DNA of 37,615 nucleotides from a virus. Lineage: Duplodnaviria; Heunggongvirae; Uroviricota; Caudoviricetes. Within the stretch, counting starts at the first letter, position 1. Each line of letters opens with the position of its first letter. Location: the IMG/VR virus record IMGVR_UViG_2721755720_000002, positions 1 to 37,615 of that record, one strand, 5' to 3'. Shown here one piece after another: positions 4,784-34,976 of this stretch. A program made the position numbers and the translations under genes. The notes beneath the pieces were generated by a model. The model was not told the DNA's origin. It saw nothing but the letters and a program-made list of their open reading frames with translations, and made no database searches.

Positions 4784-5491
4784 TTATGCCGCCTGTTTTA
4801 GTTCGTTAACTCTGATGTTCATTACCTGAACGCATTTAGCCTGCGCCTCCTCGTTGCCAGCCATTAATTGCCAGTCATGCTGATAACGCTCGATGAGTTT
4901 TTTCTTGTCAGTTTCTGTCGCTGCATAATCGCTGAAGTCTTTCAGGATTTGTTCGCAGTCAACCGATGGATATTTCTGGTTGGTATTTTCTGGTGATGGT
5001 TTGTTATCTGATGCTGGGATTGCCCAGCCCGGCAGCGATGGAGGGAGCCAGTAAAATCCTGTTCCATCCTTGAGTTTTGCCCTGTGCCATCCCTGCTTTT
5101 TGTCGAGAGATGTTTGTGCGAAACCTTCCTCAAGGTTATACAGATACCGACCGATTCCCCATTGAACGGCAGCGCGCTTCATTGCACCGGAACGACCACC
5201 TTTGACGGCTTCTACCTGCGTGTTTTCAGCAGCATCCCATTTGGTTACCCATTCGGAATCAATCTTTATCGATATGCCGCATTCAACGCCGCCGTTGTTG
5301 GGAATATCGCGGTATTCATTGCGCCATCCTGCTTTGCCGCAAACATCGTCCAGGCGTTTCATGATTGCCCGGTTCGTGACATAAGCCAGCACCATAGCCC
5401 ACACTTTGCCATCGCGTGTTTTACCGCTTTGCTGTATTCGCCATTCGATATCTTCAGGGCTGAATGGCTCATCGAATTTATTCAAATCCAT
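4784..5491 (-). CDS. Rad52-family (Sak/DUF1071-like) single-strand annealing protein
   Basis: 235 aa; KRAAVQWGIGRYLYNL motif recalled as Rad52/22-type; GAGGTGA Shine-Dalgarno; its stop directly abuts the ssb ATG. Confidence 0.55.
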   Translation of the reverse strand: MDLNKFDEPFSPEDIEWRIQQSGKTRDGKVWAMVLAYVTNRAIMKRLDDVCGKAGWRNEYRDIPNNGGVECGISIKIDSEWVTKWDAAENTQVEAVKGGRSGAMKRAAVQWGIGRYLYNLEEGFAQTSLDKKQGWHRAKLKDGTGFYWLPPSLPGWAIPASDNKPSPENTNQKYPSVDCEQILKDFSDYAATETDKKKLIERYQHDWQLMAGNEEAQAKCVQVMNIRVNELKQAA

Positions 5492-5578
5492 AATTCACCT
5501 CAGAATGGACATGGCCCAAGGAAATAACGCTGATTTAATACTTCAGTCTTTGCCGCATTTAAAAATACGCGAACACCT

Positions 5579-5750
5579 TCACGATCTCCCTTCTGGCGAT
5601 ACATTAACGCCTGCTGCGTGTACATGCGTCTCTGTAACTTGCTCTCCTTCACTGTGGTTGCAAGTGACATGAATATCTCCTTCGTTACCGATTAATTCTT
5701 TCATCTGACGAATGAATTCTTCGTCTGACCAGTTATCTGTAAAACTCATG
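5579..5750 (-). CDS. small acidic hypothetical protein (56 aa), in the position of lambda kil
   Basis: ATG at 5750 overlaps the TGA of the cIII-like gene (ATGA); product MSFTDNWSDEEFIRQMKELIG... Confidence 0.35.
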
Positions 5751-5916
5751 GACGGCCTTGTTGTTTCAAAATATCCCAAAGCTTTTCGAGCAAACTTTTC
5801 ATTCTTGGTTGTTTAAAGTCTGCTCCGGTTAAAATATTTTTTCGTGAATGCTGTACCGATAAAATCGGGTTGAAAGGGCGAACCGATGCCGCCCCTGCAA
5901 TAGCGAACTGTTGCAT
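5746..5916 (-). CDS. cIII: CIII-like small protein (56 aa), not in the ORF track
   Basis: AAGGAG then ATG at 5916; MQQFAIAGAASVRPFNPILSVQHSRKNILTGADFKQPRMKSLLEKLWDILKQQGRP; N-terminus and KSLLEKLWDIL region resemble lambda CIII from memory; syntenic position. Confidence 0.5.
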   Translation of the reverse strand: MQQFAIAGAASVRPFNPILSVQHSRKNILTGADFKQPRMKSLLEKLWDILKQQGRP

Positions 5917-5991
5917 AGGATGCTCCTTCTGTTTGATTGCATAACGAAAACGCCTCTAGTGAAGCGTTATTGGTATGCGGTAAAGCCGCGC

Positions 5992-6303
5992 TTAGGCGGC
6001 TGATGTTTCTTCTTTCAGGCTTTCGAGATATTTACGTGGGTCGTCGCAACATTGGCATTCGCTGTACCAATCCACCCAGCGATCAGTAAGCCCCATATCT
6101 GATAAATCTTCATCGGTAAGGCTCTCATCCCACATCTCAAGGCCGTTAGCATTGCAGTAATCAGGCTTGATGTTGTTGTCATACTGAAAGGCGTCATAAT
6201 CAGCCAGTGCGTCCATCAGGCGAACACCCTCTTCAACACTTGCCACTTCTACAATGAACGGCTTCATAGGTACTTGCGGGATATGCCAGACACGTAATTT
6301 CAT
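5992..6303 (-). CDS. acidic hypothetical early protein with ECQCC motif (103 aa)
   Basis: GGAGGA Shine-Dalgarno before ATG at 6303; highly Asp/Glu-rich product. Confidence 0.5.
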   Translation of the reverse strand: MKLRVWHIPQVPMKPFIVEVASVEEGVRLMDALADYDAFQYDNNIKPDYCNANGLEMWDESLTDEDLSDMGLTDRWVDWYSECQCCDDPRKYLESLKEETSAA

Positions 6304-6315
6304 ATTTCCTCCGTC

Positions 6316-6342
6316 AAAAAAATGCCCTCACACTGGAGGGCA
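6316..6342 (-). terminator. intrinsic terminator on the minus strand (tL-like) between the moron and downstream early genes
   Basis: Minus-strand hairpin TGCCCTC-CAGTGT-GAGGGCA followed by seven U. Confidence 0.55.
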
Positions 6343-6445
6343 AAGAAGATTTCCAATAATCAGAACAAGTCGGCTCCTGTTTAGTTACGAGCGACATTGC
6401 TCCGTGTATTCACTCGTTGGAATGAATACACAGTGCTTATTTGTA

Positions 6446-6916
6446 CTAATAAAATACCCAATTTTCTGTTTCTTGGTTGTGTCCAAAGTTATATTCAATA
6501 TCTGGTGTTGATGTATCAATATTCTTCATCCCATCAACAAGAGTTGATACAACAGCCAAATCTTGTTTGATTCTCATTAAATGGTATTTCTTCCGGCGCA
6601 ATAAACTTTCAATGGCAAGTTTCTTCGTTGGGAATGCAAAAGATCTTTCTGCATTTTTTGCTACTTTCTTAATTGCATATCTATTTCTCTTTTGTTTCCA
6701 TTCCTGTAACCACTGATTTGGTGCTGGTTTAAAATTAACAATCCAATGCGCAGGAACCAACCATGCATAATGCTCTGTCTGATGAAAAGCTATATATTGA
6801 AGTGCGAATATTTTGATTCCATCTTCTTCAACTGTCGCCTGGAATCTCCAGAAAACAGGCATTCCATCATGTTCAGTTTCTGATTCAGGAAAAGGTACGC
6901 TCCATGATTTTGTCAT
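6446..6916 (-). CDS. hypothetical AT-rich moron protein (156 aa) immediately downstream of N
   Basis: GAGGTGAG Shine-Dalgarno then ATG at 6916; coding region visibly AT-richer than its neighbours; followed by an intrinsic terminator; no motif recognised. Confidence 0.55.
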   Translation of the reverse strand: MTKSWSVPFPESETEHDGMPVFWRFQATVEEDGIKIFALQYIAFHQTEHYAWLVPAHWIVNFKPAPNQWLQEWKQKRNRYAIKKVAKNAERSFAFPTKKLAIESLLRRKKYHLMRIKQDLAVVSTLVDGMKNIDTSTPDIEYNFGHNQETENWVFY

Positions 6917-6924
6917 ATCTCACC

Positions 6925-7251
6925 TCAAATAAGTGGCTTGCTGCCTAATTTCATTTTCTGGCGACCAACACAAGTCACACCCATTTCACTGCGTGGCTTG
7001 CTGTACCATGTGCGCTGATTCTTGCGCTCAATACGCTGCAGGTTGCTTTCAATCTGTTCGTGGTATTCAGCCAGCACCGTAAGGTCTATCGGATTCAGTG
7101 CGCTTTCTACTCGTGATTTCGGTTTGCGATTCAGCGAGAGAATAGGGCGGTTAACTGGTTTTGCGCTTACCCCAACCAACAGGGGATTTGCTGCTTTCCA
7201 TTGAGCCTGTTTCTCTGCGCGACGTTCGCGGCGGCGTGTTTGTGCATCCAT
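6925..7251 (-). CDS. N: antitermination protein N (lambda type, 108 aa)
   Basis: Product MDAQTRRRERRAEKQAQWKAANPLLVGVSAKPVNRPILSLNRKPKSRVESALNPIDLTVLAEY... is near-identical to lambda N as recalled; nutL lies upstream. Confidence 0.9.
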   Translation of the reverse strand: MDAQTRRRERRAEKQAQWKAANPLLVGVSAKPVNRPILSLNRKPKSRVESALNPIDLTVLAEYHEQIESNLQRIERKNQRTWYSKPRSEMGVTCVGRQKMKLGSKPLI

Positions 7252-7361
7252 CTGGATTCTCCTGTCAGTTAGCTTTGAGTAACGCGCCGTGATGCTTATC
7301 TCCACGGTTGCTGTCTTGCAGCTGCATTTCGCGCTACTCAAAGCTTTCTGCTTTGAATGCT

Positions 7362-7392
7362 GCCCTTCTTCAGGGCTTAATTTTTAAGAGCC
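7362..7392 (-). promoter_or_regulatory. nutL: nutL (boxA plus boxB)
   Basis: Minus strand reads GCTCTTAAAAATTAAGCCCTGAAGAAGGGCA: boxA-like GCTCTTA and boxB hairpin GCCCTGAAGAAGGGC, matching lambda nutL. Confidence 0.8.
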
Positions 7393-7431
7393 TCACCTTC
7401 ATGGTGGTCAGTGCGTCCTGCTGATGGCTTA

Positions 7432-7504
7432 AAATTACAAGAAAGATTGTATGTTGTAAACAAGAAATATTGTAAAAAGGGGCGTGAAAAACAAAATCCA
7501 TTGT
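7432..7504 (-). promoter_or_regulatory. oL/pL: three 434-type 14-bp operators (7437-7450, 7460-7473, 7491-7504) with a candidate leftward promoter (-35 TTTACA 7460-7455, -10 TAATTT 7437-7432)
   Basis: ACAAGAAAGATTGT, ACAAGAAATATTGT and ACAAAATCCATTGT all fit ACAA-N6-TTGT; promoter hexamers with 17-bp spacing overlap them. Confidence 0.7.
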
Positions 7505-7553
7505 TTTTAAATGAAAAATAGTTTGTTTTTGGTTATCGAGATTGAGGTGGGGA

Positions 7554-8906
<1,353 letters not shown>

Positions 8907-8914
8907 GACATTTC

Positions 8915-8946
8915 CGCTCTTACACATCCCAGCCCTGAAAAAGGGC
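8915..8946 (+). promoter_or_regulatory. nutR: nutR (boxA CGCTCTTA 8915-8922, boxB 8932-8946)
   Basis: CGCTCTTACACATCCCAGCCCTGAAAAAGGGC, essentially the lambda nutR sequence. Confidence 0.85.
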
Positions 8947-9025
8947 ATCAAATTAAACCACACCTATGGTGTATGCATTTATTTGCATACATTCAATCAA
9001 TTGTTATCTAAGGAAATACTTACAT

Positions 9026-32564: not shown

Positions 32565-34976
32565 ATGTCAGATATCACCGCAAATGTTGTGGTAAGCATG
32601 CCTTCGCAACTCTTCACTATGGCGCGTTCTTTTAAAGCCGTAGCCAATGGCAAAATTTATATCGGTAAAATTGATACTGACCCTGTAAATCCTGAAAACC
32701 AGATTCAGGTTTATGTGGAGAACGAAGACGGTTCTCACGTTCCTGTTTCTCAACCAATCATCATTAACGCTGCTGGTTACCCGGTATATAACGGACAGAT
32801 TGCCAAATTCGTAACTATGCAAGGCCATTCTATGGCTGTATATGATGCGTACGGTTCTCAGCAATTCAATTACCCAAACGTTCTTAAATACGACCCTGAC
32901 CAGTTGCGTCAGGAGCTTGGCGGTTACGATGGCGCAAAGGTCATCGGTGAGTGTCCAGACATCGAAACGCTAAGGACTATTGAGCCACAGGAAAACAGTC
33001 AGCGCATTATCGTCCGCCATCACACCCTTAATTCTGGTTACGGTGGTGGTCAGTTCCGTTCCCGCCTTGATGGTTCATCGTACACAGATAACAATGGCAC
33101 GGTCATCAAGACTACGGGTGGCGCAGTGTGGCTGCGTATCAATGCCGATATTATAAACCCTCTGATGTTCGGCGCGATCCCAGACGGTGTTACTGATTGT
33201 TCAAGTGCGTTCACTAATGCACTTTCGGCTGGTAGCATTGTTGTTCCTGACGGTGAATTCAAAATATCAAACGTGCAGGTTCCCACTAAAACAAGCATTC
33301 GTGGTAACGGGTACAAATCTAAAATCGTTGTTCCTACAGGCCAGGCATCGTTCCTAGTTGGGAATTCCTCTGCGGCTACAACAATAGATTATTTCGATGG
33401 TTGTAATATTTCTGATTTGCATATTTGGTCTGATTCAGTAGCGGCTGGCACCATTGGGATAATCACGAACGGAATTAGCTCTTCAAGATTTGAAAACATT
33501 GTTTATACCAAAACAAACATTGTTATTCGTCAGGACCATGCGGAAGGCTGTACTTTCAGAAATATCAGTAACTCTGATTTGGAAAATGGTGATACTGACC
33601 CTGTGTTTGTGATTTTTTCTCAGATAAATAAACGTTCAAATGATAATTCATATTTAAACTTTGTAGCGAGAAGTAGTGATACAGAGATTTATTTAGGAAT
33701 GGTAGGTGGTGGTGACGTAACTGTGGCACAGCACGATGGCATCACTATCGAAGACTGCATTCTGTTTCCGTGTCAGAAGGATAACATTTATGTTGCAAAC
33801 GGAAGGATGGGTAGGATCTCAAATAATGAGTTGTTTGTAGCTGGAAGAAATGGAATTCGCATAGACGCAGTTGTAACAAACATGTCAATTACAGGGAATA
33901 ATATTCCTTGGTCTGGAAGATTTACTGCAGGCGGGGCTGATGCAATACTGGTGCAAACAGTGGCTGGTAGCGCTTCTTCCGCAGTTGGACAGGTGGATAT
34001 TAGCAATAACATCATCAGTATGCCTTCTGGCTGCGGAATGAGGGTTGCTGGGATTGGTCAAGTAACTATTACTAATAACACTATTGTCTCTCCAAATAAC
34101 ATTAAAACAACAGTGACTGGACCATTCACTGCTAAGCAATATGACGGAATAAGGATTAACGGAGCTTGCGGATATATATTTGTATCTGATAACCATGTCA
34201 CCACAGGAAGACACGGTCAGGGCGGTGATGATTTCTCAACGAACTGGAGATATGATGTTTTTGTTGAGTCTACCGTCATAAATGGAGTTGTTAAGCATCC
34301 TGGAATAAATGTTTTAAATCTTTCGCCTTACATTGATGTACAACTCCCTATAACTAGATATATTCAGGGTCGACATCAGACTCTATACAAGGAGGTTAAC
34401 AGTCCGTACGCAACAACTAACTGGAGGGTTGCCTCAGGAACGGGAACCATATCAGCAGTATCTGCAACTAATCCATACTCTGGGGAGTTAACAAATACCG
34501 TATTGCAGTTTGTAAACACATCCGGAACTTCAATTTTCTCAAGAGGAGAAAATACCACAACTGCGGGTGACCCAATTGGCGCTGTTTTTAAGGTTAGGTG
34601 CACATCTCCGACATCCGCTTATGTTACGTTCAGTATTGTAGTTGGCGGTTCGGTCTTTGTTCAGAGAAGCATAATGGTAGGTGCAGGGTGGGGTGAGATA
34701 GACATGCGCAGACTGGGAGCGCCTGCAGGGGTTGTTGCTTTTCAGGTTTCAATATCAGATATATGCACCATACAAATAGCCGAAGTTAGGGTGACCAAGA
34801 CCACAGAAGCGCCCCAATTATCAGGTACATATTATGGAACATCAATCCCTACATCCGGCTACTATAAGGTTGGAGATATAGTTAAAAACTCAGTCCCAAC
34901 ACCTGGATCTCCGAGAGGCTGGGTGTGCACAGCGTCAGGGACTCCAGGATCATGGGTATCAGAAGGAAATCTGTGA
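32565..34976 (+). CDS. tailspike: P22-type head-binding N-domain fused to a divergent beta-helix receptor-binding domain (803 aa)
   Basis: GGAG Shine-Dalgarno then ATG at 32565; [56 protein letters not shown] matches the P22 gp9 N-terminus; remainder has beta-helix-like repeats and is AT-richer. Confidence 0.85.

Follow-up and report, generated by a model that had tools for sequence, protein, structure and literature searches.

An AT-rich gene downstream of N in a P22-like lambdoid phage occupies an exchangeable slot bounded by the conserved PreS/tL2a element

The 156-aa ORF that follows the antiterminator gene N in a P22-like lambdoid phage is a gene of the pL operon, and the terminator located behind it belongs to a conserved element, tL2a/PreS, that is common to many lambdoid phages. 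This was observed in the 37,615-nt stretch of DNA of the IMG/VR record IMGVR_UViG_2721755720_000002, which is called the window hereafter. We favour an account in which the ORF is an exchangeable cassette of the pL operon, placed between the 3' end of N and PreS/tL2a, that codes for a binding protein acting in counter-defence or host takeover. Taken as a whole this account appears somewhat probable; its conclusions on the architecture of the locus very probably hold.

Early-left operon and identity of the gene

The window is of the P22-like (Sf6/HK620-like) lambdoid type. Its early-left operon lies on the minus strand and consists, in order, of nutL, N, the 156-aa ORF, an untranslated stretch of 142 nt, the gp17-like gene and, further along, small cIII-like and kil-like ORFs followed by the genes for an Erf-type recombinase and an SSB (Table 1). 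The hairpin at the annotated nutL of lambda is identical to the nutL boxB of the window, and N shares 93.6% nucleotide identity with lambda N over 6950-7277. The stop codon of N (TGA, 6927-6925) is separated from the ATG of the 156-aa ORF by only 8 nt.

Table 1. Positions of the features of the early-left region, in window coordinates
Feature	Position	Strand	Basis or remark
nutL boxB GCCCTGAAGAAGGGC	7362..7376	minus	Upstream anchor of the pL operon; read from sequence
boxA-like GCTCTTAAA	5' of nutL boxB GCCCTGAAGAAGGGC	minus	Read from sequence
Antiterminator N, lambda-type	6925..7254	minus	PF11438 (N36) E 1.6e-26; phrog_271
Shine-Dalgarno GAGGTGA of the 156-aa ORF	6920..6926	minus	Overlaps the N stop codon; read from sequence
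156-aa ORF, PHROG 1636	6446..6916	minus	ATG 6916-6914; 18.6 kDa, pI 9.05
Perfect 14-bp hairpin	6402..6433	minus	5' end of the 120-nt block; between the ORF stop and PreS
Putative homologue of lambda sRNA LPR1/PreS	6316..6404	minus	99.2% identity of the surrounding block to lambda
Intrinsic terminator, lambda tL2a equivalent	6316..6342	minus	Terminator seen in the preliminary description
P22 gp17-like protein, labelled superinfection exclusion	5992..6303	minus	PF17420 E 4e-55; phrog_1510
Second conserved terminator-like hairpin AACGCTTCACTAGAGGCGTT with T-rich tail	5949..5968	minus	Lambda L003 1513-1494

A preliminary description of this DNA had noted a strong Shine-Dalgarno sequence on an ORF immediately after N, a composition richer in AT than that of the flanks, and a clean terminator made of a stem plus seven U. 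All three were borne out. The GAGGTGA motif stands directly ahead of the ATG, a 7-bp hairpin is followed by a T7 run, and the GC profile sets the ORF clearly apart from its neighbours. The ORF has a GC content of 0.357 and a GC3 of 0.274, compared to 0.506 for N, 0.471 for the downstream gp17-like gene and 0.473 for the whole window. This places it at the 0.2nd percentile among all windows of 471 nt, and the lowest GC of the entire stretch (minimum 0.350) is reached in the run of such windows that covers the ORF.

Several findings establish the ORF as a genuine gene. Its product aligns with PHROG 1636 from end to end (E 5.4e-112, residues 1-156 of the 156-position profile), it gives a confident AlphaFold model, and its close homologues at 55-85% identity, which come from Escherichia, Pectobacterium, Brenneria, Cronobacter and Rosenbergiella, are of unchanged length and share 40 invariant residues. 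Antisense to the gene we noted a promoter-like TACACA-17-TAAAAT (6427-6455, plus strand) and a hydrophobic plus-strand ORF of 79 aa (6477-6716); both are probably chance products of AT-rich sequence.

Judged by its sequence, the gene is the already catalogued but functionally uncharacterised HK97 gp45 / 933W L0079. The protein is 100% identical to an unannotated ORF of H-19B located between N and gene 17, 99.4% identical to 933W L0079, Min27 ORF20 and proteins of phi24B and BP-4795, and 98.7% identical to HK97 gp45. At the DNA level, H-19B, PA28, many Stx1 and Stx2 phages and others share 98.6-99.1% identity with the region 6300-6930. At least 1000 contigs encode exactly this protein, and the gene is present in 597 of the 5426 complete E. 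coli genomes (∼11%), with up to four copies per genome; it is always annotated as hypothetical, its PGAP name being 'hypothetical protein'. The order of N followed by a gp45-type ORF is also seen in 933W, H-19B, HK97 and metagenomic lambdoid contigs. Together with the gp45 and L0079 entries, a 'putative terminator' annotation that the HK97 record carries after gene 45 indicates that both the ORF and the terminator had been catalogued before. A search of the literature available to us on L0079, HK97 gp45, phrog_1636 and NP_037731 returned nothing relevant.

The terminator corresponds to tL2a and the sRNA PreS

The preliminary description had assigned the terminator to the gene as its own. This assignment has to be given up, since the hairpin forms the 3' end of a 120-nt block shared with lambda at 99% identity, and this block follows Ral, orf184 and many other cassettes. 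By BLAST, window 6317-6436 (120 nt) is 99.2% identical to lambda 33925-34045, an intergenic stretch flanked by ral and ea10. When the window was aligned with lambda, H-19B and 933W, ∼120 nt were essentially invariant in all four sequences, which became unrelated within a few bases outside this block. The terminator stem (6342-6323, TGCCCTC/GAGGGCA) contains 5 GC pairs among its 7 bp and closes a 6-nt loop, with the T7 run at 6322-6316. The folding energy of 6342-6316 is -12.3 kcal/mol (z = -3.1), and lambda has the same terminator site (L003 1953-1932).

In lambda, LPR1, which has been renamed PreS, is an Hfq-dependent sRNA having its 3' end at tL2a. It is ∼88 nt long, is processed to ∼68 nt, is made in the lytic cycle only, pairs with host mRNAs, boosts the translation of dnaN and helps phage DNA replication (Silverman et al., bioRxiv 10.1101/2024.10.31.621285). 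The same preprint takes an identity of at least 92% to lambda LPR1 as its measure of conservation, and the value here is 99.2%. The 5' end given in Table 1 for the copy in the window is an estimate, obtained by counting back from the T-run by ∼88 nt, the length that northern blots gave for lambda. In the predicted fold of this copy, a single-stranded AU-rich linker joins a stem-loop at the 5' end to the terminator hairpin and its poly-U, as is typical of Hfq sRNAs. We regard the block as the counterpart of lambda PreS/tL2a; its expression, Hfq binding and processing would be as in lambda, by extrapolation from the 99% identity. A search of 5400-9000 against Rfam 15 gave no match, which indicates that PreS is not yet an Rfam family.

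The 14-bp hairpin at the 5' end of the block is highly stable (-21.7 kcal/mol, z = -6.8) and does not vary between lambda, H-19B and 933W. Possible roles are those of a processing site for an RNase and of an element that stabilises the 3' end of the mRNA upstream.

Exchangeable cassettes between N and PreS

We fetched 120 IMG/VR stretches carrying the 43-nt PreS core, and asked at each of the 115 usable loci which ORF ends just upstream of the core. These upstream ORFs fell into 22 clusters. Ral was found at 25 loci, phrog_1273 (89-99 aa) at 17, the 156-aa ORF at 16, phrog_1965 (152-227 aa) at 14, N itself at 11 and phrog_3054 (membrane-like, 121-149 aa) at 6, followed by many rarer clusters. 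The N-to-PreS slot holds at least 20 unrelated cassettes in these 115 loci, and Ral forms a cluster separate from that of the 156-aa ORF. Apart from Ral, the cassettes that were scanned belong to PHROGs of unknown function (phrog_1273, 1965, 3054, 1372, 12139 and others). The accessory status proposed earlier for the ORF is consistent with this comparison, as the slot holds other genes in related phages. One 293-aa cassette was seen to end with a Nun-like C-terminal motif (phrog_5632, E 7e-5).

Another cassette of the slot, beginning MEALVVERSEDGYW, is the orf184 that Silas et al. describe; it triggers the gop-beta-cII abortive-infection system and comes from an accessory region common with ral (bioRxiv 10.1101/2023.04.06.535777). 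We had considered the 156-aa ORF itself as a candidate for orf184 and rejected it, orf184 being a different cassette of the same slot. The gp45-family motif was found in none of the 200 accessory genes screened by Silas et al.

The downstream side of PreS is also variable, with ea10 at 36 loci and gp17 or other genes elsewhere. The second conserved hairpin (Table 1) is located 3' of gp17 in the window and between ea10 and cIII in lambda. Together with PreS/tL2a it brackets a second slot, which contains gp17 in the window and H-19B and ea10 in lambda and 933W. The picture is one in which conserved RNA elements appear to form the boundaries between exchangeable cassettes.

On the other side of the gene, identity to 933W spans 6317-6978 and identity to lambda N spans 6950-7277. 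Between its own, unrelated N and L0079, 933W carries a fossil reading '...VTCVGRQKMKLGSKPLI*', the end of a lambda-type N (L002 3602-3659). This fossil is non-coding and comprises the last ∼17 codons of such an N; its counterpart in the window, 6925-6978, is the live C-terminus of N. In HK97 the gap after N is as long as in 933W. The fossil places the recombination joint inside N. The right-hand junction of the cassette lies inside the 3' end of N, and the joint marks a move of the gp45/L0079 cassette between N types. The gene had also been described as independently acquired; this stands in the sense of cassette exchange between conserved boundaries, with a junction in the 3' end of N, and in no other sense.

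Protein family and predicted fold

Pfam, NCBIfam and PADLOC searches with the 156-aa protein gave noise only, in line with the earlier statement that no motif could be recognised; the best PADLOC match, Cas1_II (E 0.0097, 13 bits, 46 residues), is itself noise. At E ≤ 1, Pfam returned noise only and did not place the protein in the Ral family (PF11058), and at E ≤ 10 no recurrent Pfam family emerged from 63 family members. Neither the single protein nor the family profile found a PDB sequence below E 0.1. Among 1.84 billion representatives, a profile search yielded 87 proteins at E ≤ 1e-3, each a representative at 50% identity and most of them 130-160 aa long. They include proteins from phages of Vibrio, Pantoea and Klebsiella, from a Mu-like contig and from many metagenomic phage contigs. 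The relatives are encoded in arrays of small early genes, with no constant partner.

AlphaFold gave a weak model from an alignment of close homologues (pLDDT 69.5) and a very confident one from the wide alignment of 63 sequences (pLDDT 93.7, pTM 0.81). The predicted strands span residues 19-30, 33-46, 50-55 and 83-86, and the predicted helices 56-61 and 66-74, both short, and 98-130. The protein is thus laid out as an acidic N-terminal three-stranded sheet, a very basic centre continuing as a helix of 33 residues, and a C-terminal tail that is conserved and is ordered in the model. Between residues 74 and 118 there are 16 K/R against 2 D/E, and both termini are acidic. Foldseek against BFVD returned 12 matches at E ≤ 1e-3, every one an uncharacterised phage protein. 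The phages concerned infect Erwinia, Achromobacter, Delftia, Rhizobium, Sinorhizobium, Tenacibaculum and Cellulophaga, and they span N4-like, Ackermannviridae-like, Erwinia, Rhizobium and Bacteroidota phages.

Near-invariant positions in the wide family are limited to G33, E/Q46, T47, K87 and A101, a pattern that speaks for a binding protein rather than an enzyme; no conserved catalytic residues were found across this family. We also found no signal peptide, membrane segment or hydrophobic segment in the protein. It is predicted to be soluble, and it belongs to a family that is confined to phages and whose fold is not recognised. Remote homology and structure prediction, which might have revealed a conserved housekeeping function, did not do so and led to PHROG 1636 and this fold. 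The family motif RFAFxTKEEA...RK is one that we take to resemble the LGTFxTxEEAA element of AP2. An AP2/integrase-type or other known DNA-binding fold was considered and dropped, as neither profile nor fold evidence supported it.

Proposed expression and function

A crude consensus scan of the minus strand between 6917 and ∼7500, which missed pL too, detected no sigma-70-like site, and no terminator-like site was found on that strand from the pL region to 6342. The Shine-Dalgarno sequence over the stop codon of N, the 8-nt gap and the lack of a promoter-like site indicate an early gene of the pL operon that is co-transcribed with N. The ORF would be transcribed from pL together with N, and its translation is probably coupled to that of N. 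As there is no intrinsic terminator between pL and tL2a and no room for one between N and the ORF, we infer that the ORF is expressed as early as N, before antitermination is needed. Its product would appear within minutes of the onset of lytic growth and would be absent from the repressed lysogen.

Polymerase stopping at tL2a would yield an N-ORF-PreS transcript, from which PreS could arise by processing. N-modified polymerase would pass tL2a into gp17, cIII, kil and the recombination genes. Such read-through is plausible by analogy with lambda, where N is needed for read-through at tL2.

The predicted lytic-only and very early timing, the variable and dispensable slot that it shares with Ral, an anti-restriction protein, and with orf184, the basic, soluble and non-enzymatic build and the spread into virulent phages infecting distant bacteria lead us to infer that the protein is a binding effector. 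It would act by binding, not by catalysis, on nucleic acid or on a widely conserved host factor, and its role would be early counter-defence or host takeover, like that of its slot-mates Ral and orf184. That it binds such a target early, and so blunts defence or redirects the host, has in our judgement a little less than an even chance; it is location and timing that suggest the counter-defence part. More doubtful is the broader proposal that gp45/L0079 founds a widespread phage-specific family, with a fold absent from the PDB, of counter-defence or host-takeover effectors that are made with N among the earliest proteins of an infection and whose basic helix binds a broadly conserved bacterial target. 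The targets would then be DNA or RNA, RNA polymerase, or a common restriction-type defence.

A nucleic-acid-binding protein could instead serve the phage's own early programme, by regulating transcription or antitermination together with N, or the processing, stability or action of PreS. We consider such a regulatory role unlikely.

Slightly less likely still is a true moron, that is, a gene having its own promoter and terminator that is expressed from the prophage and helps the lysogen, for example by superinfection exclusion or defence against other phages. The strongly AT-deviant composition of the ORF and its presence or absence among related phages would fit this view, as would the exclusion labels on neighbouring genes (gp17 in the window, sieB in lambda). 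The fit ends at the signals for expression, because the 8-nt spacer, with the Shine-Dalgarno sequence in the stop codon of N, leaves no room for a promoter outside N, and the scan detected no promoter-like site within N on the minus strand, although it is insensitive enough to have missed pL. The terminator is the common backbone element tL2a/PreS and is not cassette-borne. The protein is without the signal peptide or membrane segment typical of exclusion proteins and has no PADLOC match, and its relatives occur in phages of N4-like and Ackermannviridae-like type, which are virulent and form no lysogen that could be protected. The ORF, which had been called a classic moron, is therefore not a moron in the strict sense: it shows no promoter of its own and lies in the pL operon.

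It is very improbable that the ORF is not a functional gene at all but an AT-rich spacer, or a precursor or 5' leader of PreS, as its extreme AT content and the lack of a known function or motif might suggest, given the retention of its length and of 40 invariant residues in homologues of several genera with as little as 55% identity, the wider family of 87 representatives, the very confident AlphaFold model from a deep alignment, the strong Shine-Dalgarno sequence, and the occurrence of PreS with many unrelated upstream cassettes.

A different gene of the window, 7554-8030 (minus strand, probable true start 7958), lies directly 3' of the cI repressor gene (7955-8587), in the position of lambda rexAB. 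It belongs to phrog_2651 (unknown function) in a region with a local GC of ∼0.37-0.38. Read from its second Met, the start codon of which overlaps the cI stop, the product has a signal-peptide-like N-terminus. Unlike the 156-aa ORF, this gene may well encode a conversion or exclusion protein that is exported and expressed in the lysogen.

Implications

The gene was already catalogued, and the adjoining sRNA and terminator had been described. The present analysis is of value because it corrects the reading as a moron with its own terminator, delimits an accessory hotspot, the N-to-PreS slot, and singles out gp45/L0079 as a well-posed target for counter-defence screens. A gene that ∼11% of the complete E. 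coli genomes carry, and with them most of the sequenced Stx1 and Stx2 phages, has no function assigned. Its location in the Ral slot, its probable timing as early as that of N and its confidently predicted, unrecognised fold make it, with some 20 slot-mates, a candidate for anti-defence and host-takeover screens. If the broader proposal on gp45/L0079 holds, the N-to-PreS slot of lambdoid and Stx phages would be a hotspot from which effectors could be mined. For annotation, an apparent cassette-owned terminator is to be replaced by the conserved sRNA gene PreS/tL2a; since this element is also a recombination boundary, the resident cassette would supply the precursor transcript of the sRNA.

Comparison with known systems

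Morons have a dedicated promoter, and the prophage expresses them. Morons as they were reportedly defined for HK97 and HK022, by Juhala et al. in 2000, share with the 156-aa ORF a deviant, AT-rich composition, presence or absence among related genomes and a terminator at the 3' end. The ORF differs from them in showing no promoter of its own and in being embedded in and coupled to the pL operon, and in that its terminator is part of the backbone; from the operon structure, expression from a repressed prophage would not be expected.

The closest counterparts are HK97 gp45, 933W L0079, Min27 ORF20 and the H-19B ORF, which likewise come directly after N and are followed by the same hairpin and T-run. 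The window has a lambda-type N and an 8-nt gap to the ORF, whereas HK97, 933W and H-19B have an H-19B-type N and a gap of 44-58 nt. The gene downstream of the gp45-type ORF differs as well, being gp17 in the window and H-19B, ea10 in 933W and cIII in HK97.

PreS/tL2a of the window and of lambda have the same GC hairpin with poly-U and the same predicted fold, and one base change adjoins the T-run. The element comes after the 156-aa ORF and before gp17 in the window, and after ral and before ea10 in lambda. Ral and orf184 occupy the same slot as the 156-aa ORF, between N and PreS/tL2a, and all three are early accessory genes of the pL operon. Ral (66 aa, PF11058) and orf184 (107 aa, acidic) differ from the basic 156-aa protein, which belongs to a different PHROG and is unrelated to them in sequence and family.
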